A stretch of DNA of 64,000 nucleotides from an uncultured Methanosarcinales archaeon. Its GTDB lineage: Archaea > Halobacteriota > Methanosarcinia > Methanotrichales > Methanotrichaceae. The stretch is from positions 1 through 64,000 of the forward strand of contig CAWJKV010000003.1 of NCBI GenBank assembly GCA_963843555.1, in the 5' to 3' direction. The notes below the pieces were generated by a model. The model made no database searches and was not told the origin of the DNA. It was given only the letters and a program-made list of their open reading frames with translations. Below are positions 11,613-49,032 of this stretch, piece after piece (the first letter of the stretch is position 1; every line of letters starts with the position of its first letter). The position numbers and the translations under genes are program-made.

Positions 11613-11750
11613 ATGCCAACGAGTAAGAAACAGATGGAAAAGCTGAACAGAGCTAAAAAGGCCAAGGCAGAAGAGCTCTCGAAGCAGGTAGCTTTGGGTA
11701 ACCAATCCGCCAAGAAGAAGCTCAAGAAGCTCGAGAAAAAGCTCAAGTGA
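11613..11750 (+). CDS. Small Lys-rich protein, 45 aa (MPTSKKQMEKLNRAKKAKAEELSKQVALGNQSAKKKLKKLEKKLK)
   Basis: RBS GAGGTGA just upstream of ATG, open frame, T-rich terminator tract after the stop; below the ORF-track cutoff. Confidence 0.75.
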   Translation: MPTSKKQMEKLNRAKKAKAEELSKQVALGNQSAKKKLKKLEKKLK

Positions 11751-11793
11751 GCCGCCTGGCCTTTCACCTATTTTTTATCTTCTTTTTAGCGAG

Positions 11794-12170
11794 TGTGGAG
11801 TCCCGAAACTATTTCGCACCTACTTAAGCTCCGAACTCGAAGTTCGGAATATGAAATTGAATAAGCGAAAAATCCACTGGATTATTCGCGAAAAGAAGAA
11901 GGGGGTGACAACAAGCGAGATTGCCAGGGATATGAAAATATCCCGCAGACGGTTCCTGCAGGTCTGGAAACAGTATCTTGATACGGGAATAGAGCCAGTT
12001 ATCGGCAAAGATATTGGCCGGCCCAAGAAATCATATGATTCAAAAGGAGCTCAGATTGTTGTTTTGGCCTATGCTCGCTACAGATTTGGGGCACGGATGC
12101 TTGAGGCAGCGATAAGGAAGATCTATAACTTGCATATCTCATAATCGTATCCACATGTATCTGAAAGCAT
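11794..12170 (+). mobile_element. Truncated IS481-like insertion sequence (left end plus transposase N-terminus 11851..~12170)
   Basis: Starts with TGT; HTH-type N-terminus MKLNKRKIHWIIREKKKG...GRPKK...YRFGARMLE; catalytic DDE part absent. Confidence 0.65.
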
Positions 12171-12471
12171 CCGGGCCCTCGGCAAGATGTATCTTCCGGC
12201 GGGCCTCCTTCACAGGCATCTTGCCGCCATTTGCAGCAAGTAGGGCCCTTCAAGATCTTAAGTCGCGCAGGCTTTGACTAAGGACTGATGGAGGACTGAG
12301 GCCCTTCGTGGTCAAAGCTATCCAAGCATCCGTCTGAAAATATTGAAAATACGGACAAGTTCGCTATGGGAACCCACGGGCCTTGAGTTAATCGGAGTCC
12401 TTAAAAAAAATCTCTTCATCCGAAGGCTTTTTCATTGCTTACTCCGCGTGCTATAGAATCGAGGGAATGAT

Positions 12472-13401
12472 ATGAGAGCTATCCAATGGCTGATATTTTT
12501 GCTAGTTTTAACCGCACCGGTATCCGTAAGTGCAATGGCTATTGATTCTGTGGACCGGCATTCCACTTCAAATGAGTCCGATTCTTTGGCCTGGCGCAAT
12601 TCAGGTGATGCTTATTATATTATTGGCCAGTATAACGAATCCATCGAGGCCTATGATAGAGCCGTAGAGCTCGATCCCAGGAATGTGGACGTATGGATTG
12701 CCAAAGGCAATGTGCTCAATGACCTCGGTAGGTATAACGAGTCTCTAGAATCTTTTGATAAAGCCCTCAAACTGGATTCCGGGGATGCAGCAGCCTGGAA
12801 TAATAAAGGAATCGCTCTTTCAAAATTAGGCTACTATTTGGAAGGTGTCAGATGCTACGAAGAAGCCATAAATATAAATCCGAAATACGCAGAAATTTGG
12901 GTTAACAAAGGAAATGCCCTTTCGGATCTGGGTAGACACAATGAATCTCTTGAAAGCTATTACAAGGCAATTGAGCTCAATCTGCATTATGCCAGTGCCT
13001 GGTATAATCTGGGTAGCGAACTTGATGAATTGGGCCGTTACAATGAGGCTATAGAAGCCTTTGACAAAGCCATCGAGATAGATCCAAAGGATTCTGAAGC
13101 CTGGAATAACAAAGGAAATGCCCTTCGTGATTTGGGTAGGTATAATGAGTCCATCCAATCTTATGAAAGAGCTACCGAGCTGGATCCCAAGTTGGCACTG
13201 GCATTCAAAAATGAATCGTATGCTCAAGCTTGGTCAAAAATTGTTTGGGATGTGAATAATAATGAATCATTGGAACGCATAAAATCCGAAGGGTGCGAAA
13301 TAATTTCAGGACTGCACAGTTTCATGCTCTCCTTGATATGTGTTCGATGGCTATTTGGTTATTTCTTTCGTCGCCAGGGCCGCTCTTCTATCTTTCGCTG
13401 A
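12472..13401 (+). CDS. Secreted TPR-repeat protein (C-terminus probably truncated, running into the island-end repeat)
   Basis: Signal peptide, ~6 TPRs (AWNNKGNAL...YDRAVELDP); last ~20 codons overlap repeat 13340-13565. Confidence 0.85.
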   Translation: MRAIQWLIFLLVLTAPVSVSAMAIDSVDRHSTSNESDSLAWRNSGDAYYIIGQYNESIEAYDRAVELDPRNVDVWIAKGNVLNDLGRYNESLESFDKALKLDSGDAAAWNNKGIALSKLGYYLEGVRCYEEAININPKYAEIWVNKGNALSDLGRHNESLESYYKAIELNLHYASAWYNLGSELDELGRYNEAIEAFDKAIEIDPKDSEAWNNKGNALRDLGRYNESIQSYERATELDPKLALAFKNESYAQAWSKIVWDVNNNESLERIKSEGCEIISGLHSFMLSLICVRWLFGYFFRRQGRSSIFR

Positions 13402-13565
13402 TGGTCATTGGGTAAAGCCTGAAGGTCTACATGTCCTGTGGGTGTTTCTTGACTTGATGCCAAGTTTATCCTCTTGATTTTTTACTCACCGATCCACATC
13501 CGGGTAACGCCATTACCTGTTGATTCGGTGATTTTAAAAATGGAGATGATATACATATGATTGAA
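13340..13565 (-). repeat. Island-segment end sequence, homologous to 14225-14457
   Basis: Shared blocks gggtaaagcctgaaggtct, ctgtgggtgtttct, tgccaagtttatcctctt, ccgatcc; both copies abut an SRP 3'-end copy. Confidence 0.9.
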
Positions 13566-13615
13566 TGGCAGGCCCGCCAGCGGTTGCCCTCGAACTCGCA
13601 CGCCAGTTAATCCCG
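13566..13615 (-). repeat. SRP RNA 3'-end duplication (att-like), 50 bp
   Basis: Matches 25393-25442 with 1 mismatch. Confidence 0.95.
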
Positions 13616-13736
13616 TGCACCATTGGCGCTCTTGTTTGCTCGGCGGCATCATCGCATATATTTCCTCGCGATAATAACATCAAAAAACTCTGACCTTGTT
13701 ACTGAAACCGGATGGTTTTATGGCCTTGAAATGCAG

Positions 13737-14210
13737 TCAGGACAACCCGAGACGGTCTTTTATGGATCGTATATCTGCCTGCATCTGTCTGAATTGCATT
13801 GCATACCCCGGTTGGACATCTTCTCTCACGCCTTTGATCTCTTCCAGAACCTGAGGGATTGCATCGGTATTCCCTTTCACTGCCAGGAGGATTGGAATCG
13901 CCTTATTCATTTGAGATGCCGTGTTTATCGATGCAAATTGCCACAACGGCATGACGGCCCCGGTGTAGTCCTCGGATCTCACATTATCCACTTTAGCGAG
14001 CGGCGGTCGCTCCAACATGGCTGAGTTATAGAATTTCGTGGTTCTCTGCTCGTCACCTTCGACCAGGGCTATAACTGCCTGTTGTCCATCTTCATCGTCA
14101 TTGTAGACCTCAAAACCTCGGAGGGCCAGGCGCATTGCTAACTCAGCGAGGTAGGGCCTGTAGCCCACGTCATGTACTTTTTGACCTGTGATCGTTATTT
14201 TTAACTTCAT
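13737..14210 (-). CDS. Acylphosphatase-like domain protein with C-terminal coiled coil
   Basis: ITGQKVHDVGYRP, GFEVYN, VIALVEGDE; start at MKLKITI (or up to 14219). Confidence 0.8.
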   Translation of the reverse strand: MKLKITITGQKVHDVGYRPYLAELAMRLALRGFEVYNDDEDGQQAVIALVEGDEQRTTKFYNSAMLERPPLAKVDNVRSEDYTGAVMPLWQFASINTASQMNKAIPILLAVKGNTDAIPQVLEEIKGVREDVQPGYAMQFRQMQADIRSIKDRLGLS

Positions 14211-14224
14211 GCTCATCATGATAA

Positions 14225-14457
14225 GTGTTCGTTGGGCTATTTGATCATTTCTCAAGTTGCCAGGATCTCTTCTATCTTTCGCCTTCATGGTCTTTGGGTA
14301 AAGCCTGAAGGTCTGCATCTCTCTGTGGGTGTTTCTAGACCTGGTGCCAAGTTTATCCTCTTAATTTTTTTAGTCGCCGATCCGTATCCGTTCAATGCCG
14401 TTACTTGTTGTATTCGACGGGATTTTAAGAATAGGAATAAATATACACAGGGTTAAA
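14225..14457 (-). repeat. Island-segment end sequence, homologous to 13340-13565
   Basis: Alignment by eye over ~230 bp. Confidence 0.9.
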
Positions 14458-14584
14458 TGGCAGGCGCGCCAGCGGTTGCCCTCGAGCTCGCGCGCCAGTT
14501 AATCCCGATGCATCCTCCTGCCCTTATACCTATAAGCGACAGTTACCCGCAGCAGGTCTGCTCCCTTCCGGGCCTGAACCGGTT
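14458..14584 (-). repeat. SRP RNA 3'-end duplication (att-like), 127 bp, includes helix 8 motif
   Basis: Matches 25393-25519 with 5 mismatches; minus strand has CAGGCCCGGAAGGGAGCAG. Confidence 0.95.
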
Positions 14585-14790
14585 TGGTGCAGGGAAAAGA
14601 TTGCACCTGTTTTGAACCTCATGCCGCAATAGTATTGCCGAAAGAGAGTTGTGGAAGTTGAAGGGTATGAACTGAAAATCGTCAGCCGTTATAGGTGATA
14701 TAAACCCGATTATGAAAGGGCCGCATTCTAGAGATTTTAAGATCAGATTTTAGAGATATTACTAAAACTAGACATATAAAAGTATCTATA

Positions 14791-15573
14791 TTATTGACTA
14801 TTATCATACAGGTTTCTTAAAATATTTTGTGCACTTTCAGGAAGGAAATAGGACAGAAATAGACTGATTAAGATTCCAACTAGAATCGCGATGCTAAAAC
14901 TGAGAAGCGTTCCGAATAAGATGTATTCGCTGGTTTTTCGTTCATTGAATCTCAAGATTGATTTGGCAGTAACTAATAGTCCTATTGCAGTATATTGGTG
15001 AAGCAGCATCAGTGTGTAGATCAAAAGACGCTCAGTATAGCCGATATACTTGCCTGCATTCTTCAGGCCATCAGAATCCTCAAATTCCGGCCTCCAGCTT
15101 TCAACCAATTTTGATATGAGAATACTGGCTGGCCGGAAAAGGACGATATATCCTGCCAACACGACAATTAAGCAAATCGCAGTGGATGAAGACAGCCAAA
15201 TTTTAAAAAAGGGAATGCCTTGATGCCAATTCAATGGGAATAATAAAGACAGGATTATTATGATTACTGCAAAATGTCCGAGTTGATCGAATATGAATGA
15301 TTTCAGCGTATTATTAAAGTGCGTTTTCATCAAATCTATGACCAAATGGCTCAATAAAGTTAACACGACTACAAAAGCCGTCGCATATAAATTAAAGAAT
15401 AGAGCCGATGCAATCCCTGCAAGAGTGGCAGCTACAAAAGCGTGCAAATAAAGATATTTCGACCTCGATTTGTGCTCTTCTTTGTCTTTTACCCATTTGT
15501 CAGGCTGCAATGCAAAATCAGAAATTATGTGGGCAAAGATCAGGTAGATTAAAAAGGAAAATATTAGCTCCAT
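14791..15573 (-). CDS. DUF3307 (SatE-like) membrane protein
   Basis: AHIISDFALQ, SHLVID, FDQLGH, GKYIGYTERLL, LVTAKSILRF, EYILFGTLLSF; multiple TMs; follows satD-like gene. Confidence 0.85.
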   Translation of the reverse strand: MELIFSFLIYLIFAHIISDFALQPDKWVKDKEEHKSRSKYLYLHAFVAATLAGIASALFFNLYATAFVVVLTLLSHLVIDLMKTHFNNTLKSFIFDQLGHFAVIIIILSLLFPLNWHQGIPFFKIWLSSSTAICLIVVLAGYIVLFRPASILISKLVESWRPEFEDSDGLKNAGKYIGYTERLLIYTLMLLHQYTAIGLLVTAKSILRFNERKTSEYILFGTLLSFSIAILVGILISLFLSYFLPESAQNILRNLYDNSQ

Positions 15574-15577
15574 ATTT

Positions 15578-16272
15578 TTAATCTCCTTTGTGATTAATTA
15601 TGTGACTGTTGATTTTCGTTTTGATCAACTCAGAATACCTTTCAACAATTCTAACCACAATATCGTAATCCGTCTTCTTTAGCCGTCTGCCGACCGCAGA
15701 GAAGCTGATATTTAGCTTTTCTCCGATTTCCTTTAAATTATAATCATCAAGCTTATACATCACAGCAGCACATTGCTTAGTCGTCCATTTGCTTATTAAT
15801 CGATCAACTACTAAGCAATGAATATCCATTTCTGCATCTACTTCAGGCCAGGGCGTCTTAACAATCAGATTTCTATCTCCTTTCAAGTTTCTGTCCAGAA
15901 GTTGGCCGGAATTTCTAAATGCTTCACCTGACATCTCACCGATGTTATAATTGTCCTTGCCAGTTGGGAGATGATCAATTTTTCCCAAGCCTATTGCAAT
16001 TCTAGCGTCTAATCTTGGATAGGTTTCATCTACCTTAAAACTCGATATTAATCTTAGCCGCAAGATAATTGCATCTTTTATTGCGGAATCCGGATTTGAC
16101 GTTGCTATCTGAAAACTATCTCCTCTAAAAATAGACGGCGGGATTAGTGAATTCTTTTCAAATAGTCTAAGGAATCATGAAGATCGTCGACCCAAGAACT
16201 GCCAAATCGTTCTGTAAGTCGAGTTGATCCGATAATATCTCCAGTCATTACTGCATATATTTTATCGTCCAT
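15578..16272 (-). CDS. SatD family protein (cyclase-like palm domain + C-terminal HTH), frameshift near 16170
   Basis: MDDKIYAVMTGDIIGST / IFRGDSFQ / RIAIGLG / GEAFRNSG / EIGEKLNISFSAVGRRLK across two frames. Confidence 0.82.
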
Positions 16273-16432
16273 AGTGGATTCCTTTTTCTACTTAGCATTA
16301 TTTTGATAGAAACGTTACTTAAAGATGTCGGGAAAATCTTTACGCAATTACCCGCGCACGATTTACACGAGCAAGCATTCCCCTTACGTTATCAAATTTC
16401 AGTATAACGCATATGTTATTGTCTCTGATAGA

Positions 16433-16530
16433 AGCATAGATTACTCCAATTTCTGTAATTGGATCATATGTTACTCCAATTTCTATGATTGGAGCATATG
16501 CTACTCCAATTTCTGTAATTGGAGCATATC
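16433..16530. repeat. Tandem 30-bp repeat (3 full units + partial) with internal palindrome CTCCAATT-N5-AATTGGAG
   Basis: Units 16441-16470, 16471-16500, 16501-16530; no spacers. Confidence 0.92.
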
Positions 16531-16849
16531 TTGCAGTACTCTGATTGAAGCAGATCTATTGGAGTATCTTGATGATAGCCGTCATCGGATCATCTCAACC
16601 ACCGATTCCTCGCAGGGAATACGCTTACCCGTCGTCCTCGGTATGGCTTGAACGATCTGGAGGTTTAAACGGCAAATGGCAGACTGCATCTCATTCATTT
16701 CCTTTCTTGATTTCCCGAACCCATTCCCTGATTCCAGGATGATATGGTTATTCAGATCTTAGCATTCGTTTTATCGAACTACAGATTAGACGACACTGCC
16801 GCCGAATGCGGCGGAACAAGATATATCAGATATATAATGCTCATCCAGT

Positions 16850-17710
16850 CTAAATCATTTGCCCGTATATGATTGGGGCCATAGCAATCAGCGTGAATCC
16901 CGTTATCAATCTGATGGAGACTCTGTGTTTGTTCCTGAAATGATCCACTTGCTCTGGGCTCATACCCAGCGCGATGATCCCTCCAATGAGGAGCATTGGT
17001 AGTGCTATGCCCACGTTGTAAATCAACAAATAGAGCAGTCCTGATGAGGCATACCCCTGGCTGGAGATCATGCCGATAATAGCGATATAGATCCCTCCCA
17101 CACATGGAGCCCTTACCAGAGAGAAGAGCGCTCCTAATAGGAAATAGGAGCTGAGCCTGCGGCTGGAAACGACACCATGGACATACTTCTTAGTCCAATC
17201 CGTGCGGAAGAGTGACGTGCCCCCACTTTGTAGCCTCCTGGCATCCTCCAGTTGCATTAGCCCCAAAACCAATAGGACAGCTGCCAGAACAAGGCGGAAC
17301 ATAGCGGCAGTAGACCTTTCCTGTAGAACGCTAAATAAGCCCACAGCGATAACAATGTAGACTGCAAGCATGCCCAGAGAAAAGGCAGCTACCATGGTCA
17401 GGATGTCTTTTCTGCGGCCTGTACTGGACAGCATTGAGCTTGCAAGAAACGCCAGTATAGCAAGAAGACAGGGATTAAAGCCCGCTAAAAGGCCGGCTGC
17501 AAAGACAGTAGCTACAGATGATACAGTGAGATCTTCGAGGGCACCAGCAGTAGCTTCATTAGCGCATACTGGAGAAGTGACCGTGGCGTCTGTAGTACTA
17601 CCTGTAGCTAAGACGGGCGATAAAGTCATGACTGATATCATTATCAGTAAAATTGCGATGATACAGAGTCGCACGGCCTGCATTCTGGTATTCTCGGATA
17701 AGCGTATCAT
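16850..17710 (-). CDS. CcdA/DsbD-like cytochrome c biogenesis (thiol:disulfide interchange) membrane protein
   Basis: GLLAGFNPCLL and RAPCVGGIY cysteine motifs in TMs; YNVGIALP. Confidence 0.85.
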   Translation of the reverse strand: MIRLSENTRMQAVRLCIIAILLIMISVMTLSPVLATGSTTDATVTSPVCANEATAGALEDLTVSSVATVFAAGLLAGFNPCLLAILAFLASSMLSSTGRRKDILTMVAAFSLGMLAVYIVIAVGLFSVLQERSTAAMFRLVLAAVLLVLGLMQLEDARRLQSGGTSLFRTDWTKKYVHGVVSSRRLSSYFLLGALFSLVRAPCVGGIYIAIIGMISSQGYASSGLLYLLIYNVGIALPMLLIGGIIALGMSPEQVDHFRNKHRVSIRLITGFTLIAMAPIIYGQMI

Positions 17711-17973
17711 AGCAGCATATGATGGGTTCTAAGAAGAGGTCGTACCTTGAATTATTTATCAGTATTGATGTAGATCAACTGTCGCATGGAGCTGATGCCC
17801 AAGGAATTCCATGTGAACGGCTCTGCTCCAGATTATCTGCCTAATAGACGATCCATGAAGAACTCATAACCAGCTCCTGCGAAATACGGTACTCTTTACT
17901 CATGCCCCTCCATGCTTGCCGGTCGCCCTATAAATCCGGCTTTGAAAACAGGATCAATATATTTATTGTTAAA

Positions 17974-18065
17974 TGGCAGGCCCGCCAGCGGTTGCCACTG
18001 AACTCGCGCGCCAGTTAGTCCCGATGCTTCCTCCTCCCCTTATACCTATAAGCGACAGTTACCCG
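17974..18065 (-). repeat. SRP RNA 3'-end duplication (att-like), 92 bp
   Basis: Matches 25393-25484 with a few mismatches. Confidence 0.95.
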
Positions 18066-18319
18066 TAAACCTTTAAGCCCTTGATAGATGCGCTAGCATA
18101 TTGATTCTGCTCTTTTAGCCCTCATATTATACATAGTAAACGCGCTTATCGTATATGTAATTTTTGTGTAAATAAATACCATTACTAGTCGTATTTTCAG
18201 GTAATCTATTTCATTTTGTAAAGCATTTACCGTATAATTCTATCACATACCTACTAGAAAGTGGTAGTATACGTGGCATCAACATCTAGCAAGTTGGTTG
18301 GCTTTTCCCAGCCGCCTTC

Positions 18320-19551
18320 ATCTCATATACTTCCTCGCGAAGGTCGTGATGAAGGCCGCCCACAGAAAGGTGCCAAATATGGCTCCTCTATTGCCACGGC
18401 TCGACTATGCAGGAGCAAGCCTATACCCGGCGGGTGCGGATTGATTATAACCGCAATATAGCCAGGGGCTATCGCACGGTAAAGCTGAACCAAATGTAAT
18501 CTGAATGGCATTTGTAGCACCGATTACCCCGTTTCCCGTCCAATAAATAATGGCAAATAGATGTTAAAAGTTGCAATCCACCATACCTATGAGCCACGGA
18601 TGGGGCGCAAATGCGATATCCAAATATCATTGGATAAAAATATATTCTAATACATTATATTTTATAAAATCTTTCAGATGTTTCCACTTTCTCTCTTTAA
18701 TCGCATTGGCTAGACTGTAAACTAATTCGTTTTTATTTTTAGGAAATGAGACACGATTCTCTAACTCAATTTCTCTTACTTCGTCCCAGTCATACAAAGC
18801 CTCGAAAGGTATACCATTTGCTTTTCTTTCCCTTCCATTTCCTTGAAATGATAATAATCAGCTTCTTCTTTATCGCCTGATACTTCGGCTAGTTTTTTTG
18901 CCTTTCTAAATGCGCTTTGCTGAGAATATGGGTTAAAAAATACTGCATTATATAGATTTATATGATTCGTTTTCAAATCATCTAGATCGATATAGTCTAA
19001 AATCCCTGCATCTCTTAATATTAGGCGGCCAAAAGTGGCTTTACTGAAGTCTGCGTGTTTAAAGAATCTAGCTTTTTCGAAATTGCCATCATCCTTGATA
19101 ATAGCCTCACCAAAGCTCGCGCGTCCCATAAATAGACTGCCGACGAAACTGAGACCTAAAGCTTTCTCATACCAATTAGTAGGGCGGTACATAATCTTTT
19201 CAAAAATGGCTGATTGCTCGAACCTTGCCCTTGAAAACTCAGCGCCACACTTAAAGACGGCTCTTTCGAAAAGAGCTTCTTGGAAGAATCTCGTTTTACT
19301 AAAATCGATAAAATCTTGGAAGGATACGTTGCGGAAATCCAGTTTGCCTTGTATTAATGAATCCGTTATCTCAATCTTGCCCGTGACAAGTTTTCTATCA
19401 TCTTTTGCAGAAGATTTGAATTGCCTAAGTTTAAGTCACCTTTAACTATCACGTGATCATATTTCACTAGCTCGCCTTTCTCGATCTTGGCAAGTATCTC
19501 GCTAGCAGGAACCTCTTTCAAGCCTTGATCTTCTTGCGATTCATCTTCCAT
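18320..19551 (-). pseudogene. Pentapeptide-repeat protein with C-terminal membrane region, multiply frameshifted
   Basis: VPASEILAKIEKG...IVKGDL N-terminus, xAxF pentapeptides (ARFFKHADFSKATF), EADYYHFKEM; 3' end approximate. Confidence 0.6.
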
Positions 19552-19750
19552 GCAGCCTTATTTCCTCCGGGAGATGGCAAATGTTGTCGCCATGAATTAT
19601 ATTCTTTCTCTTTTCCAGACGAGCTGACATAGATTACTTTGGCCCGCTCTGGTCCATTTAAATATTAGGTAATCATAAATGAGGATCAATAGTGCCAACA
19701 CAAAGACACATCGCTAAGCCTTAGGCGCTAAAAATGCAGGAAGATGAGAG

Positions 19751-21529
19751 ATGGACCCTATTGTGAGACTCGCGGCAAGTGCATCGCCTGGTGAAAAGAA
19801 ATATGTCCTATTTGCGGGCGCTGGTGTATCAAAAGATGCAGGTCTACCAACATCATGGGATCTAATGATGAAGACTGCAGGCGTATTGTGGGCTGCAGAT
19901 AATAAGGATGGAAATTCAACAATAGATGCAAGTCAATTAGAAGAATGGTTTATCAAGAGCAACTATTCGAAAATGGAATATAATGAATTGATGCATCAAC
20001 TTTATCCGAATTATCCAGATCAACAAAGTTTCCTCAAAGAATATCTAAACGGCAAAGAACCAGGATTATCACATCGAGGTATCGCTGAATTGGCGAGGCG
20101 CAAGATAATAAGAGCAATTATAACCACAAATTTTGACAATTATATTGAGAAGGCCTTAGAAGAAAAAAAATTGGAATATCAGGTAATTTCTAATGATGAT
20201 GATTTAGAGAAATCAGAACCATTAATCCATTGCAAGTCTGTAAGAATCTACAAACCACACGGGGATTTGGGACGCGGCGCGCTTAAAAATACGCCAAAAG
20301 ACTTAGAAAAATTGTCTCTGAAAATGGAAACTGAATTAATTAGAGTCCTAAGTGAGCATGGGGTTATAATTCTTGGATACTCTGGTCGTGATAAAGGCAT
20401 ACAAAAAGTTCTGTCTGAGAGAAATCCAATTTATTATCCACTATTTTGGGTCGATCCATGTACGCCAAATGCAGATATTGAGACTATTTTAAGATCGATA
20501 GACTATACGTACATCCCATGCAAGGGTGCGGGGCAGTTCATAGAAGATTATATGAAAATTATAGAAAAATTGGAGAGTCTGTCACCCAGTCATGGTTTGG
20601 GTCCAACGATATTCGAGATAAGACGTGCATTATCTTCTCCAAATGAGCCTATTGAACCCATCGTTATGGAATTTCTGAATAATATTTATCGACGCTTACA
20701 AGGCATAAAACCGGATTTTACAAAGTTCGATGAACATGATGATGCAATCATCCAGCAAATCGATGATGGATTGATGATTTCTTATGATTTCATAGAAGCT
20801 GCAATAGAGGTAGCCAAGTATAAAAATGTAGGTGCTATTAAAAAAATTTATGAATTTTTTGGTGAAGGATTAAAGCTTTATGATATTCCAGATAATTTTT
20901 CTGGAAGTTATCATACCACTGATTTTGATGGATATAAGTTCTTGCTACAGGAAATGTTCATATCGCTTATAGCTGCCTTGATAAAATACAACCATTGGGA
21001 TCTTATTCAGAATTTGCTAGGTGAAGGATTGCTAATAAATAGAAAACGTGAAGGAGGATACGCTTCATTCAGCGAGCTCAATGCATATCTCTATTCTCTA
21101 GACATAGAGCGAAATAATCGCCTGAATAAGAACCCTCGTAGAATGAGCATAACGGCGGATCTCTTTAATGAAAGATTCAGTAATTCAAAGCTCTCAGAAC
21201 TTATAGAATTCCAGGAATTTATTGAGTCAGATTATTTTATTTTTATACGAACAGTGTGTCATGCGTCAGATCCATTAAATCCTCGACGGAAAGAAATATG
21301 GTCCCCATATAGTAGCGTCTATTTAACACGACCTCCAAGCTTTATTATTAAGGCGGAAAGCAAGAGATTTCTTGAGATCCTGGCGAATTCATCAGGCTGC
21401 TCAGAGCTAGATAGGTTCGTTGATAGACTGAAGAAAAGTTCAGAGATTATCCATAAAATTTGGCAGAGTGGATTTTATAATGGACCTTTGACGTATTATG
21501 ATTTTGAAAAGCTGGGAACTTGGCCATGA
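19751..21529 (+). CDS. SIR2-family (sirtuin/NADase-like) protein with long helical C-terminal domain
   Basis: LFAGAGVS, IITTNFD, YKPHGD, LGYSGRD; intact 592-aa AT-rich ORF. Confidence 0.9.
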   Translation: MDPIVRLAASASPGEKKYVLFAGAGVSKDAGLPTSWDLMMKTAGVLWAADNKDGNSTIDASQLEEWFIKSNYSKMEYNELMHQLYPNYPDQQSFLKEYLNGKEPGLSHRGIAELARRKIIRAIITTNFDNYIEKALEEKKLEYQVISNDDDLEKSEPLIHCKSVRIYKPHGDLGRGALKNTPKDLEKLSLKMETELIRVLSEHGVIILGYSGRDKGIQKVLSERNPIYYPLFWVDPCTPNADIETILRSIDYTYIPCKGAGQFIEDYMKIIEKLESLSPSHGLGPTIFEIRRALSSPNEPIEPIVMEFLNNIYRRLQGIKPDFTKFDEHDDAIIQQIDDGLMISYDFIEAAIEVAKYKNVGAIKKIYEFFGEGLKLYDIPDNFSGSYHTTDFDGYKFLLQEMFISLIAALIKYNHWDLIQNLLGEGLLINRKREGGYASFSELNAYLYSLDIERNNRLNKNPRRMSITADLFNERFSNSKLSELIEFQEFIESDYFIFIRTVCHASDPLNPRRKEIWSPYSSVYLTRPPSFIIKAESKRFLEILANSSGCSELDRFVDRLKKSSEIIHKIWQSGFYNGPLTYYDFEKLGTWP

Positions 21530-21554
21530 AATGCAAGACGCTACATACGTCAAA

Positions 21555-22304
21555 AGCACGCATTATCTCGTTGTTTTTGCCAGTATGCACGTTGTTTCCC
21601 ATCTGCTTCTATTCCCGAATACCTATAGCGGCCCTCATAGATTCCTCGCCTATCCAAAATACGCTTCACCTGCATAGGATGAAAGAGCCTTCTTTATGTC
21701 CGCGATCTTCTTGAGCGAGCATTCCGGCTTCATATCTCGCAGCTCAAAGACCCGCTAACTGTGCTGGCCTTCTCTTCATCCAAGGTAAGGGCCTTGTCGC
21801 CTCGCTCTGCCTTGTAACCGATAGGTGCCTTGCCGCCTGCATAACCACCCTGGCGGGCCTTAGTCTTCCGACCGCTTGACAACCTGGACGTAATCAAGGA
21901 CTTCTCGAACTCGGCAAAAGCCGCTACCATAGTCAAAAGAAGCTTCTGGGTCGGATCTTCCCAGCGGCCCGGTTCCGCAATGCTTACTAGCTCCGCTCCA
22001 AGCTTCTTGATCTCCTTCATGAGCCACAAGGAGAGCATAGTGTCCCTGGCAAGCCGGTCTAGCCTGGTTACAATAACTTGCTTGATGTCTCCGGCCTTCA
22101 AAGCCTCAAGCAAAGCATGCAGGCCGGGCCTCTCCAAAGGTGGCAGCGATCCAGAAAACGCAGGATCCTCGATAGATCTGTACTAGCTCTAGGCCATTTG
22201 CAGCGCAGTACTTCGTGATCGCGTCTCGCTGGGTTTCAAGCCCGAAGCTATCAGCAGCCATTTTGGTTCTCAGTGCTTACCCGGACATAGCCTACTGCTC
22301 TCAT
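21555..22304 (-). pseudogene. Serine recombinase (resolvase + short recombinase domain), frameshifted
   Basis: MRAVGYVRVST (catalytic Ser), ERPGL, VTRLDRLARD, AFAEFE, GGKAPIGY, then QVKRILDRR; at least 3 frame changes; 3' end approximate. Confidence 0.8.
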
Positions 22305-22367
22305 AACAGTAATCAATTAGCGTTATGAGTTTATAAACATAACGGTAATTTTAATTAGCGTTATGAG
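22300..22367. promoter_or_regulatory. TATA box (TTTATAAA, 22330-22337) flanked by two palindromic sites, upstream of the recombinase
   Basis: CTCATAAC-N14-GTTATGAG (22300-22329) and CATAACG-N14-CGTTATG (22338-22365). Confidence 0.7.
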
Positions 22368-22588
22368 ACTCCTCAAAGTGATGGAGTTATCTAAAGATAT
22401 CGGTGCAAAACAGAGTATAACCAAATCAATTATATTAGTGGTTTTCTACGTTTATTATATTATTAATAATTTTTCTTGGTGCGATAAAAATAATTAATTA
22501 GACAATTTTTGTCCATTTATTTCTCTGCATGAAGTCGTGGTTCACAATCTCAATTCTTATATAGTAGGTAGTGGTAAAAACAAATGGG

Positions 22589-23829
22589 ATAACAATGGAA
22601 TCAGCAAAAAATTGCCAAGATTTATTGAATAAGTTAAGATTATGTCAATCTGAGGTTGAGAAGCAGTTCCTAATAGCTGCAGATAAACTCGGCCATTCGA
22701 AAGAGTTAGAACCCCAATATCCTGCATTGGGTTATTATATTGACTTCGCAATCGTAAGTAGAAAAATTGCAATAGAAATTGATGGACACGACTACCATAA
22801 AACTATCGAACAAAGAACCCATGATAGTAAGAGAGATCGCGCTCTTGATTTAGATGGATGGAGGGTTATAAGATTCACAGGTTCAGAAGTCCGAAGAGAT
22901 GCGAGAGCATGTGCAAAAAGAGCTACAATGGAAGTATCTACAAATCTAATTTCAACACCGAAGAAAAATAGGCATGAGAAATTTTGTGAATTATACCAAA
23001 TCGCCAAAACAATAGATAATATAAATTTCGGTGATGGATCTATTGATGATATATCACTCCAGATAAATCCTAAGAAACACAAAATATACATGATCGAGCC
23101 TTAACATTATCAAGAGAGGGTAAATATGAGGAATCCATAAAAATCTTTAAGGAATTAATTGATAAAAACCCCTCATTCATTTGTGCTTATAATAATGTGG
23201 GCTGCGACCTAAATAGTCTTGGCCGATACGAAGAGGCAATTCGATGTTTTGAGATAGTTCTGAAGCAAGATCATTTGGATGCAATTGCCTGGGCAAATAA
23301 AGGAGTTGCTCTAAGTGAATTAGGCCATTATGAAGAAGCCATAAGATGTTTTGATGAAGCACTTAGAGTAAGGAATCCATATACATTTGCTTTGAATAAC
23401 AAAGGCATCGCTCTTGCCAAAATAGGGCAAATCAAAAACTCATTTGCTTGCTTTGATGCTATATTTAAAAGAAATCCAAAACTTCCATCTAATGCTCCTG
23501 TGTGGAATGATAAGGGGAATATTTGCTTTGAGCTACGGCAATACAACGACGCAATTGACTGTTATAGGAGTTCAATTAAATTGGACCATTCAGATCCAAT
23601 TGTATGGAATAATATGGGCAAAACTCATTACATTATTGATCAGTTTAGAGAGGCTAACGAGTGTTATGATAATGCAGTTCACCTAGATCCCTTTTATGAT
23701 GATGCATGGTTTAACAAGGGAAAGGCTCTTAAAAAATTGAAAATCGAGGATGGAGCAGAGTCTGCTTTCAAGAAGGCAAGAGACATAAAATCAGGAAAAT
23801 TGACAGATCCTCGGAAGGAGCCACCTTAA
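22589..23829 (+). CDS. DUF559 (Vsr-like endonuclease) domain fused to TPR repeats; frameshift near 23085
   Basis: IDFAIVSRKIAIEIDGHDYH...RD...GWRVIRFTGSEV; frame of ORF 23197 extends upstream (HDRALTLSREGKYEESI...) to overlap the end of ORF 22571. Confidence 0.75.
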
Positions 23830-23930
23830 GTTGAGGATCGAATATGCTCTTGTTTACTGAGATAATGCTTAGAACCTTCCGACAATGTCAGGCAGATATA
23901 AATAGTTTTATGTTGCATCTTTAATTAGAA

Positions 23931-24534
23931 ATGAATCAAGATAGAATAGATGATGCAGCGAGTGATATTGTGAGAACTGATGATGCGGACCCAATAGCTA
24001 GATTAGAAAAAGCTAAAGAAGAATTAGCTGATGCTCTTGAGAAAAATGATACATATGGGCGAACGAAGAAAGTTTTAAATGATGCAAATAATTGGATTTT
24101 AGCAACAAGTGCAGGGACGTTAGTATTAATTTTAAATGATTATAAACTGTTCTTATTAAATTCACCCACCCAAGAAAAGATATACCAACTTCCAGGAAAG
24201 TATTATTTTATTAGTTCAATAATTATTCTAATCTATATCTGTGATAGTATTAGGATATAATAAAATTCAGCTTATAAAAAGAGATTGGATCATGAATATG
24301 TCAATAGATAGTTTATCTATATTGAGGGATGAGATACTGGATCCAGAGAATAAGACAAAGGATATAGAAGCATATACAAATGAAAGTATTACAGAAATCT
24401 ACGAATCATGGCGTGCAGGCCATGAGATAATAGTGAATCGGGATAAAACTCTGATAGTCGGAATTTTTATATATATTATTGGCATCATAGTTTATGGATC
24501 ATACTTCAGTGGTATATATATTAATTATAATTAA
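23931..24534 (+). CDS. Hypothetical membrane protein (two ORFs, probably one frameshifted gene)
   Basis: ORFs 23931..24260 and 24241..24534 overlap; hydrophobic segments; AT-rich. Confidence 0.55.
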
Positions 24535-24794
24535 TTATGTAGCGCTATTATGAAAATATAGGGCGGCAACCGTCTTTTTGTAATCTTAAACCCAAGTCTC
24601 CAAACAGGCTCTTTTGAGCGAATCTCGCCCAGAAACAACAACTCAGAGTGGGAAGTACATGAAGAGAATGAGGCGGGGCAACGATTGAGATCGAATGAAA
24701 TCGATTTCATATTGCCAATAACGAGACGCTCAGCGGCGAGGAGTTTGAAATCGATCTGAAAATGTGACGGGCAATATATTGATGATGATTAGGT

Positions 24795-25061
24795 TCATTG
24801 TTTTTGTCGCATCGCCGCGATCTCAGCATATTTCGCTTGAAAACATTCTACTGCCTTCTTTGCCCTTCGATATCGATCCTTCATCATTTCCGCTATTTGC
24901 TCTTCGTCAAAGCCCGACTCTGTAGAATCGAAAACTCCTGCAAAAGTTCCAGATCGGCATCCGCTAAGGTCTGCAAGCACCGATTCTACGATATCTGGTT
25001 CAGTGGTCGGTTGTTCTTCCAGCCTATCGATCCGCTTCTGCAGCGTCTTAATCGCAGTCAT
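24795..25061 (-). CDS. Small hypothetical protein of the integrated element
   Basis: 88-aa ORF with GGAGG upstream and coiled-coil-like N-terminus. Confidence 0.45.
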   Translation of the reverse strand: MTAIKTLQKRIDRLEEQPTTEPDIVESVLADLSGCRSGTFAGVFDSTESGFDEEQIAEMMKDRYRRAKKAVECFQAKYAEIAAMRQKQ

Positions 25062-25234
25062 TGCTTGGCCTCCGCGCCCGACTGCTTTTCTAGGGCTGCT
25101 GGCCGTGCTCAGTCAGCCAGCGTTCGAACCTCTTCAAAGCCGGATTAACATCCTTAATAATTTGGCGATTCCAGTTCACCTTTTGCCCAGTCATTTTCAG
25201 CCACCGAATTCCTCGAAGGGAATGCGCTTACCCG

Positions 25235-25381
25235 TCGTTCTCGGTGAAGACTTCGAAAACAGAATCAATAAAAGAAGGGCATGTTCTAGATTCTTAACGG
25301 CTCGCTAAGCGACAAGATCGAACAGCGCAGCGGTTTGATCTTATCGTTCTCGGTGAAGACTTCGAAAACAGAATCAATAAA
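25235..25381. repeat. Perfect 38-bp direct repeat (25235-25272 and 25344-25381) at the element end next to SRP RNA
   Basis: tcgttctcggtgaagacttcgaaaacagaatcaataaa occurs twice. Confidence 0.92.
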
Positions 25382-25392
25382 TAAGAGTTAAA

Positions 25393-25707
25393 TGGCAGGC
25401 CCGCCAGCGGTTGCCCTCGAACTCGCGCGCCAGTTAATCCCGATGCGTCCTCCTCCCCTTATACCTATAAGCGACAGTTACCCGCAGTAGGTCTGCTCCC
25501 TTCCGGGCCTGAACCGGTTCCTGCAATTATGGTACACAGATCTTCCTTCAGGAAGACCCATGGACCGGTGCTATCCCTACAGGACGGAGAATCATTGTCT
25601 GCACCTGGACTGAACGCGCAGCGCCCAAAGTCTTCCGCCAGCTTCGCCCCCCGCTTATCGACGATTTCGGGTTATAGGTGACGCCGAACCACCCGGACTG
25701 CCCGCCA
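25393..25707 (-). ncRNA. ffs: Archaeal signal recognition particle (7S/SRP) RNA
   Basis: ~315 nt; terminal helix TGGCGGGC/GCCTGCCA; Alu domain GGGTGGTTCGGCGTCACCTATAACCCG; helix 8 CAGGCCCGGAAGGGAGCAG; TATA-like TTTATA ~25 nt upstream. Confidence 0.96.
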
Positions 25708-26015: not shown

Positions 26016-26083
26016 AAACTTGTTCCTCGCCATTTAGTGCGGGTTCGTGCGCGGGTCACAGGAATCCGACATTTATTTTCGTA

Positions 26084-26363
26084 GTCCTCTGTACGCTCGT
26101 GCCTCTGTGGTGTTCTTTCATAAATCCTCTGGTTTGAATATGCCGCTACGAATATTAACCGCAGAGACGCAGAGTTCGCAGAGACGCGATATCTTCTTTA
26201 TCACTATTCCATAACCTGAAGCCCAGAAAATTGCCTTTCATGATAGTTCTCCGTTCGTCGTCCTCCGTGCGCTCTGCGACTCTGCGGTTTTCTTCCGTAC
26301 CCACCAGAGTTTAATTATCCCGTGATGAATATTAACCGCCTAGATAAAGAGCCCACAGAGGAA
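26084..26363. repeat. REP-like intergenic inverted repeats (two units), same family as 1494-1632
   Basis: tcctctgtacgctcgtgcctctgtgg / aaccgcagagacgcagagttcgcagag; tcctccgtgcgctctgcgactctgcggtt / cccacagagg. Confidence 0.75.
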
Positions 26364-26414
26364 GCGCCGCCCGGGCGACCTCGATCCTAAAGGAAATCAA
26401 AAAAATATCATGGC

Positions 26415-48087: not shown

Positions 48088-49032
48088 ATGCAGCTAATTA
48101 TCGAGCCTCTGCCGCCCTTTGACTTCGATCTGTCAGCGCAAATCTTCGTGAATGGGGACGGGCGCGTACAAAAGTACGAAGGTAGTGTCTTCTGGCAGAC
48201 AGTTCGGCTGGGAGGGATTCCGGCATTGATCAGAGTTTCATCTCAAGGGACAGTCGACCATCCCCAAATCCTGGTGCAGGTCGAGCCACAGGACGCCTTT
48301 TCCGATGATGATAAAGAGGATATTGAAGCCCTGGTGGTCAGACTCTTCAATCTGAAACTGGATCTATTGTCCTTTTACGAAGCGGTTAAGGATGATCGCA
48401 TAATGCGGCCAATAACTAAACGCCTGTGGGGCCTGCACAGCCCCAGCACGGCCACAGCTTTTGAAGCTCTGATCGACTCCATTATCGAGCAGCAGATCTC
48501 ACTCAAAGCCGCCTGGAGTATGCAGCGGCGGCTGATTGAGACCTTTGGGGAAGCCCTGAACCTGCGGGGCCGCACCTATTTCGCTTTTCCAGAGGCGGAG
48601 AAGCTGGCCGCGGCCACCATTGAAGAGCTGCGCAATTGCGGCCTGAGCGGCAGGAAGGCAGAGTATGTGCAGGGAGTCGCCAGGTTTGTGGCGGGAGGGC
48701 TGGACCTGGAGAATTTCCGGGCCTGGGACGAAAAAAGGATTATCGAAGAACTCAGCCTGATAAGAGGGGTGGGCGTCTGGACGGCGGAGATGACCATGAT
48801 CCGGGGGATGCAGAAGTTTGATGCTTTCCCTGCCGACGACATTGGCCTGAGAAGGCTCATCGCCCGCTATTACTATGGAGGCGAGAAGATCACGGGAGAA
48901 GAGGCGCGGTGCACTGCCGCCGCCTGGTCGGGCTGGCGGGGTCTGGCCAGCTTCTACCTGGTCATGGCCGAAATGCTGCAGATCGAGCCTGAGCTGGACG
49001 AATTATTGGATAAAGATCCGGAGACGGCTTGA
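48088..49032 (+). CDS. alkA: DNA-3-methyladenine glycosylase II (AlkA family)
   Basis: IIEQQIS, GLSGRKAEY, HhH LSLIRGVGVWTAE, FPADDIGL. Confidence 0.88.
   Translation: MQLIIEPLPPFDFDLSAQIFVNGDGRVQKYEGSVFWQTVRLGGIPALIRVSSQGTVDHPQILVQVEPQDAFSDDDKEDIEALVVRLFNLKLDLLSFYEAVKDDRIMRPITKRLWGLHSPSTATAFEALIDSIIEQQISLKAAWSMQRRLIETFGEALNLRGRTYFAFPEAEKLAAATIEELRNCGLSGRKAEYVQGVARFVAGGLDLENFRAWDEKRIIEELSLIRGVGVWTAEMTMIRGMQKFDAFPADDIGLRRLIARYYYGGEKITGEEARCTAAAWSGWRGLASFYLVMAEMLQIEPELDELLDKDPETA

Follow-up and report, generated by a model that had tools for sequence, protein, structure and literature searches.

An array of SRP RNA gene fragments in a Methanotrichaceae archaeon and the SRP RNA gene as a putative integration target

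Repeats behind the SRP RNA gene and linked integrases in relatives

The 64,000-nt stretch of contig CAWJKV010000003.1 analyzed here (hereafter, the window) comes from an uncultured archaeon of the family Methanotrichaceae and carries an intact gene for the signal recognition particle (SRP) 7S RNA, followed downstream by three partial copies of its own 3' part. The copies keep the orientation of the gene and share one end base. Between the gene and the successive copies lie segments of 7327, 3389, and 842 bp, designated E1, E2, and E3, and a fourth, E4, lies beyond copy 3, so that the inserted DNA amounts to ~13.6 kb in all (Table 1). The GC content of E1 to E3 is 39.1%, 41.5%, and 46.4% versus 53% in both flanks. 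The intact gene and every copy precede an integrase leader, with which each segment opens. In E1, the leader contains a TATATTGATTCT-like box, a GGTAA-N5-TT(A/C)C palindrome near 25232, a ribosome-binding site, and a 38-bp internal duplication; E1 as a whole consists of leader, integrase remnant, cargo, arm, and a putative right attachment site (attR) with a full core. The only tRNA gene in the window is at 48921.

Table 1. Positions of the features in the window. Feature assignments as attachment sites and elements are predictions.
Feature	Position	Strand	Basis or content
Intact SRP (7S) RNA gene, putatively containing the left attachment site (attL) of the newest element	25393..25707	-	Rfam RF01857 Archaea_SRP, 191 bits, model 1-317, full length
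Predicted recombination core, SRP nt 224-241	25467..25484	-	GTAA, 7-nt spacer (nt 231-237), TTAT
Copy 1, putative attR with complete core	17974..18065	-	SRP nt 224-315, 95% identity, E 2e-40
Copy 2, putative attR with core and 35 nt of extra SRP sequence (helix 8)	14458..14584	-	SRP nt 189-315, 96%, E 2e-59
Copy 3, putative eroded attR, core gone	13566..13615	-	SRP nt 266-315, 96%, E 6e-22
Element E1	18066..25392		7.3 kb, GC 39%
E1 integrase leader	25195..25392	-	76% identity over 246 nt to G014 integrase leader and gene start
Tyrosine integrase remnant, first ~32 codons	25102..25194	-	75% identity to aa 4-35 of G014 integrase, E 1.6e-9 in the window
Serine resolvase pseudogene, cargo	21730..22290	-	Pfam Resolvase; stop and frameshifts
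SIR2-like protein, candidate defence gene	19751..21529	+	Pfam SIR2_2; PADLOC PDC-S65, E 1.4e-62 over 2-505
E1 conserved element end (P arm)	18066..18231	-	AATCAATATG at 18106, fixed spacing to core, palindrome 18218-18231
Element E2, 3.4 kb	14585..17973		Leader interrupted by a later insertion; SatD and DUF3307 follow
DsbD-type membrane gene insertion in E2 leader	16643..17939		1.3 kb, GC 48%; absent from G065 and G068
Element E3, 0.84 kb	13616..14457		G011-type integrase leader (73% to G011 leader), then acylphosphatase-like gene
Element E4 remnant	11790..13565		Leader (76% to G011), start of second acylphosphatase-like gene, IS481-like remnant; without closing SRP copy
45-aa chromosomal open reading frame (ORF), marks original downstream flank	11613..11750	+	Flanking DNA compared across relatives

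A previous sequence-only reading of this DNA had described the intact gene, three co-oriented 3' copies with a common end, and segments of ~7.3, ~3.4, and ~0.84 kb, and Rfam and sequence matches bore this out. The limits that it gave to the array (13566..25707) hold for three segments, and the fourth continues to ~11790. Its description of the cargo as AT-rich and defence- or stress-like is accurate in that GC content lies below that of the flanks, but the smallest segment is only mildly AT-rich and the cargo is mixed and includes a single good candidate for defence (the SIR2-like gene). It had seen no tyrosine integrase, which the remnant of 32 codons corrects.

Contigs from three other studies run across the copy 2 junctions and across the join at the 3' end of copy 1. 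No single read or contig among the contigs and four sequencing runs examined spans the whole array, and the interior of E1 is almost uncovered in those runs. Among the sequencing runs listed for the genome, none was of RNA, and the best share was 0.13. Two joints (18040-25469 and 16605-25210) were considered as signs of excision and rejected, as both run through repeats. Also rejected were copy 2 as a separately folded RNA (z -0.37) and a hidden fifth boundary at 16674-16682 (a 9-nt match to the SRP end), where G068 shows the leader halves to be one leader split by the DsbD-type gene. Here and below, G numbers denote the genomes compared (G000 is the source genome) and L numbers denote loci, including metagenome loci.

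Intact tyrosine integrases of ~290 aa start 72-160 nt behind the intact SRP gene, in the same direction, in G011, G014, G041, and G086. Of the 105 genomes of the order, no other had a match above 580 bits, and the best remaining match scored 327. The intact integrases have R145, K170, H240, R244, H267, and Y276 (G011 numbering), which we take to be the catalytic set on the basis of the tyrosine-recombinase motif. Integrase remnants lie behind the SRP gene or a copy of it in G020, G050, G052, G059, G065, G067, G069, and G070. At 27 of 44 metagenome loci, SRP sequence is directly upstream of the integrase; the other 17 comprise nine close relatives without the N-terminus or upstream DNA and eight distant or tiny matches. 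In a tree of 54 rows, restricted to near-complete proteins (partial, frameshifted, and most duplicate loci excluded), one branch (SH-aLRT 99) separates the 20 SRP-adjacent integrases, which make up one whole side of it, from 11 tRNA-adjacent ones. Relatives at ~40% identity adjoin tRNA-Leu, -Gly, -Pro, or -Arg genes or nothing recognisable.

A large protein collection held ~50 clusters at no less than 55% identity to the integrase, with generic names only. Two of 401 genomes in a sample of the phylum matched at E<=1e-85, both of the tRNA type at ~310 bits, and no SRP type was found in those searched. A viral collection gave 359 pattern matches with no relative among them, and no parent element was found among viral contigs. 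In the source genome, which is 82% complete, we found no intact member of the clade; the matches there were a distant relative on C7, present as its C-terminal half, and two more that were likewise distant. Related integrase groups without a tRNA or SRP gene within 1.5 kb occur at L059, L062, and L155 (G074, G023, and G078) and at L066-L070. A second, more distant tyrosine recombinase or a fragment of one is located behind the SRP integrase in L122, L123, L125, L128, L130, L137, and L118.

Complete elements, with integrase and both ends, were found in G014 (3.8 kb) and L131 (6.5 kb; its copy is 100% identical to the host). The elements with an intact integrase at L118 and L120 carry a primase-like or P4/D5 primase-helicase gene; their integrases are 95.5% alike, yet their partners differ (primase versus D5-helicase genes). 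Because intact-integrase elements carry such primase or primase-helicase genes, they probably go back to a small integrative plasmid as parent form. The notion of one integrase subtype per copy length was rejected, since G014-type integrases occur with copies from nt 224 (G014) and nt 259 (L115), and a G011-type integrase with a copy from nt 226 (L131).

The genes upstream of the SRP gene are conserved among relatives; the downstream DNA is not. The distance from the SRP gene to the flank DNA of the 45-aa ORF is ~60 nt in G008, a near-empty site, 3.5 kb in G052, 15.5 kb in G066, and 13.6 kb in the window. A copy in G012 precedes DNA that is 94-96% identical to that behind the intact SRP gene in G016 and G001, which makes a filled/unfilled pair differing by one unit. 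The close relatives G065 and G068 have E2 in common and different contents in front of it. Co-oriented downstream copies were found at 9 of 30 intact loci, with two or more in the window, G065, and G012, and an integrase leader lies no more than 260 nt behind the SRP gene at 14 of 31 intact loci, two of which were the query loci. At least two SRP matches, some of them mere pieces at contig ends, are present in 17 of the 59 genomes of the genus. G022 has two opposite-strand SRP matches. In five genomes (L032, L048, L051, L094, and L098), a Panacea/SocA-like antitoxin gene lies directly behind the SRP gene or a copy, with an HD-domain partner in G016.

The comparison of SRP loci in Methanotrichaceae that the sequence-only reading had proposed thus yielded near-empty sites, variable content, and linked integrases. 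A locus without variation or empty sites among relatives, which it had named as a counterindication, is contradicted by G008, by G012 against G016 and G001, and by G065 and G068. The same data bear on an origin of the copies by local tandem duplication or mis-assembly. Such an origin would be in keeping with an array spanned by no read and with the starts of E3 and E4, which are 82% identical over 309 nt; however, the copies differ from one another and their cargo is unrelated, the same units and junctions occur in G065, G068, and G042 and in contigs of the three other studies, and the relatives have linked integrases. It is already contradicted by the comparative data, and we give it almost no credence.

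Predicted recombination core and proposed course of integration

SRP nt 227-241 read GTAA-N7 followed by TTAC (23 genes), TTAT (8), or TTGC (2) in the 33 intact genes examined. The dyad GTAA-N7-TTA(C/T) is therefore present in 31 of 33, and the predicted chromosomal attachment site (attB) is conserved in all 33. Copies start at nt 224, the left edge of the dyad, in copy 1 of the window, G014, G072, G049, G041, and G067, and are preceded there by an AATCA(A/G)TATG box and a 31-32-nt spacer that is kept in length and unrelated in sequence. Arms homologous to the P arm of E1 are present in these five genomes and in G059, where the spacer is longer and SRP-like; in L131, the copy starts at nt 226 behind another arm. 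The boundary and arm of copy 2 recur in G065 and in a contig of G042. The contigs L108, L111, and L117 begin with 8-14 nt of non-SRP DNA, which gives way at nt 224 to the SRP 3' end, with leader and intact integrase behind it. None of the three has terminal repeats, and they are compatible with an element-borne attachment site (attP) and with a tandem alike. A dyad around a 7-nt overlap is described as the standard tyrosine-recombinase core in the accessible part of PMC8371274. Because copies start at the dyad edge and the dyad has this standard form, we infer that crossover takes place within it, at nt 231-237.

The leader palindrome carries the core half-site on both sides of a 5-nt spacer and is located just before the ribosome-binding site. 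Its pattern has 18 matches in the genome (both strands), five of them (four sites) within the 14-kb array. Our guess from this position is that the integrase may regulate its own expression. Integrase DNA is 92% identical between G011 and L118, while the 200 nt upstream of the SRP gene are 79% alike, which points to a putative transfer between species.

We consider it very likely that the locus is a tandem graveyard of eroded, once integrase-bearing integrative elements of one family, and not an integron. In the proposed course, a ~290-aa XerA-like tyrosine integrase would recombine attP, which carries the SRP 3' part, with the chromosomal SRP gene, and crossover would fall within the dyad at SRP nt 227-241. 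Integration would restore the full SRP gene and place leader and integrase directly behind it. The former 3' end, beginning at nt 224, would be moved farther downstream together with every earlier element, such that the newest element would lie nearest the gene. Afterwards, integrase and replication genes would be deleted, insertion sequences (IS) and other insertions would enter, and the attR copies would erode from the 5' side until the core is lost and the cargo fixed. The palindrome, repeating the core half-site, would probably serve integrase self-regulation, and gene conversion would keep the restored 3' end host-like. Recombination and excision by the integrase are putative, as read from sequence comparison; no excised circle was seen. 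The suggestion of the sequence-only reading that a family of archaeal elements repeatedly targets SRP RNA agrees with integrases dedicated to the site, a boundary that recurs, differing contents, and near-empty sites. Of the two options that it gave for the segments, erosion agrees with the integrase remnant, the leader at every segment head, and ragged copies without a core.

Several points weigh against this course. The copy starts vary (nt 188/189, ~200, 224-226, 239-266, and 286-293), and erosion accounts for the short copies and not for the long ones (nt 188/189). SRP nt 238-315 follow each host (83% identity between G011 and L118, 98.7% between L118 and the window); with crossover at nt 231-237, later conversion of the restored end from attR is therefore needed. 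Three of 12 copies are far from their own host (rank 7 of 33 in G066, 13 in G049, and 14 in G042). A closing copy was not found within 8-11 kb in G011, G041, and G086. The metagenome loci are not independent (L118 equals L119, and several have a common sample prefix), and the integrase tree is the product of a quick search with an unreliable root.

Conversion from attR fits the copies in G059 and L131, which are 100% identical to their host, and for eight of the 12 copies the own host is at rank 1 or 2 of 33. One fragment resembling copy 2 (L100, G042:C61) is closer to the window SRP gene than to that of G042, being either misbinned or moved as a block.

The same elements might instead cross over at the SRP 3' end itself (GCCATTTAA, the end common to the copies), nt 224-315 in attR then being an arm borne by the element. 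The single end base of all copies, a restored 3' end that tracks the host and not the integrase, and shortest copies of 28-35 nt would be expected from this. It leaves the sharp boundary at the dyad without a reason, and the host-like ranks and full identities given above are not predicted by an element-borne arm; we regard crossover at the 3' end as very unlikely.

Contents of the segments

The cargo of E1 comprises an 88-aa ORF, two small family-less ORFs, a TPR gene, a DUF559 nuclease-like gene, the broken serine resolvase, the SIR2-like gene, and a broken pentapeptide/ion-channel gene. The resolvase was considered as the SRP recombinase and rejected, as it is broken and patchy, whereas tyrosine integrases track the SRP gene. 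The 3' end of the pentapeptide/ion-channel gene (18304-18340) is repeated at 13635-13671, just before copy 3, and an intact gene of that kind is present in an element of G049. In E2, SatD is frameshifted in the window and whole in G065, and the leader halves (17940-17973 and 16595-16642) are contiguous in G068. The SatD-DUF3307 unit with an unbroken leader lies directly behind the intact SRP gene in G065 and behind a different 4.4-kb element in G068. A 30-nt tandem repeat of 3-4 units (16422-16532) separates the E2 leader from SatD and is found in G068 too. An E3-type leader with an acylphosphatase-like gene adjoins the intact SRP gene in G009. The IS481-like remnant that cuts E4 has 27-nt inverted repeats (11794-11820 and 13292-13318) around a TPR passenger gene; an end related to it is found at G000:C3:199218, in the vicinity of two tRNA genes.

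Distant from the SRP gene, an SRP 3' fragment (nt 259-315) was found at L001:9114-12520 (G000:C5:181114-184521), with an upstream arm as in copy 3 and a homologue of the 88-aa ORF of E1 3.3 kb away. It occurs in G065 with the same flanks, as one ancestral event, and its cargo sits within the SRP array in G063. Upstream of the SRP gene, 26017-26370 contains a dispersed palindromic repeat with ~10 other genome matches, similar to miniature inverted-repeat transposable elements or repetitive extragenic palindromes; its contig depth is very high in one run.

In a weak form, the cassette idea draws on integrase-less units that recur in combinations across strains. G012 has a DUF3800 and a Panacea unit, G066 the first only, and G049 the second only. 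Between hosts, the DUF3800 unit reaches 96% identity, against 85-89% in the flanks. The unit of leader and acylphosphatase-like gene recurs in G009, G042, and G065 and twice in the window, and E1 retains both cores and the arm. These units could be integron-like cassettes, closed by SRP 3' copies, selected, and moved in trans or swapped by homologous recombination. However, the integrase scores 65-74 bits with TIGR02249 (cut-off 265), matching in two pieces, and travels inside elements with replication genes; the segments open with an integrase leader or remnant, no core is left in the DUF3800 unit or in copy 3, and G000 has no intact clade member. We judge this explanation unlikely.

Like integrons, the locus is an ordered array beside a fixed site, with the newest unit putatively first and defence- or stress-like cargo. 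Unlike integrons, it has no IntI, and its multi-gene segments run on both strands, each putatively derived from an integrase-bearing element. No attC was seen, Rfam giving SRP only and no search aimed at attC having been made. The integron-like cassettes moved in trans that the sequence-only reading had offered are thus at odds with an integrase inside the element, though movement in trans may apply to core-retaining segments. A wider version appears similarly doubtful: an integron analogue on an essential RNA gene, in which a dedicated clade would seed the locus, integrase-less units keeping SRP 3' copies would be reshuffled and pass from strain to strain, in trans or through recombination of the copies with one another, each event would replace the last 80 nt of the SRP RNA, and displaced copies would form an allele reservoir for repair or variation.

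Relation to known elements and significance

Tandem integration and integrase loss after integration have been described for tRNA-targeting archaeal elements in the accessible part of Badel et al. (2021, PMC8371274). Judging by that text, the SRP-associated elements resemble those with classical (non-partitioned) integrases in having the integrase beside the attachment site, a duplicated and restored 3' part of the RNA gene, a dyad with a 7-nt overlap, integration in tandem at a single locus, and integrase loss. As in RNA-gene-targeting tyrosine-integrase elements generally, an integrase with the full catalytic set lies at the attachment site (in relatives; in the window, a remnant is left), the 3' end of the restored target is directly repeated, sites are empty or differently filled, and a dyad with a 6-8-nt overlap lies at the boundary. 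The sole departure is the target, which is the SRP RNA gene and neither a tRNA nor a tmRNA gene. Integration would replace ~80 nt of an RNA that is both structured and essential, and the elements have a dedicated integrase clade with its own arm and leader. Unlike the suicidal integrases of the SSV1/pTN3 type, whose attachment site is inside the split gene, the integrase here is full-length when integrated. It is similar to archaeal XerA (closest solved structure 5hxy, E 3e-35; best NCBIfam model NF040815), yet it scores 145-152 bits against a cut-off of 220, is present in 4 of 105 genomes, and is tied to SRP, whereas host XerA is expected in nearly all.

In bacteria, the Enterococcus faecalis phage phiEf11 integrates into ffs, the SRP RNA gene, and its authors found no other example of an SRP RNA target, according to the accessible part of Stevens et al. 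(2025, PMC12540744). In both cases the SRP RNA gene serves an integrase as attB, putatively so in the archaeal one. In that text, phiEf11 is a bacterial prophage, and its 27-nt core changes the 3' end of the RNA; the elements here are archaeal, small, and plasmid-like, the gene would be restored, and the site is used repeatedly with arrays. The accessible parts of PMC8371274 contain no occurrence of SRP, 7S RNA, signal recognition, Methanothrix, or Methanosaeta, and those of PMC12884075 no mention of SRP or ffs; those of PMC4731332 and 10.64898/2026.01.13.699239 have no bearing on the target. No archaeal case of an SRP RNA target was found in the literature searched, which included few subscription papers and had the TIGER target tables outside its scope. 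The archaeal SRP RNA gene is thus probably, though not certainly, new as an integration target.

The archaeal SRP RNA gene would join the list of integration targets, with an integrase clade, a predicted core, and a hotspot in a family of acetate-using methanogens. Genomic island finders that are built on tRNA and tmRNA genes would miss these elements. The predicted attB conserved in all genes examined, together with restoration of the gene, makes this a testable system and a candidate site-specific insertion tool for Methanothrix. It also raises the question of how an essential RNA tolerates the exchange, between species, of one strand of a long helix.

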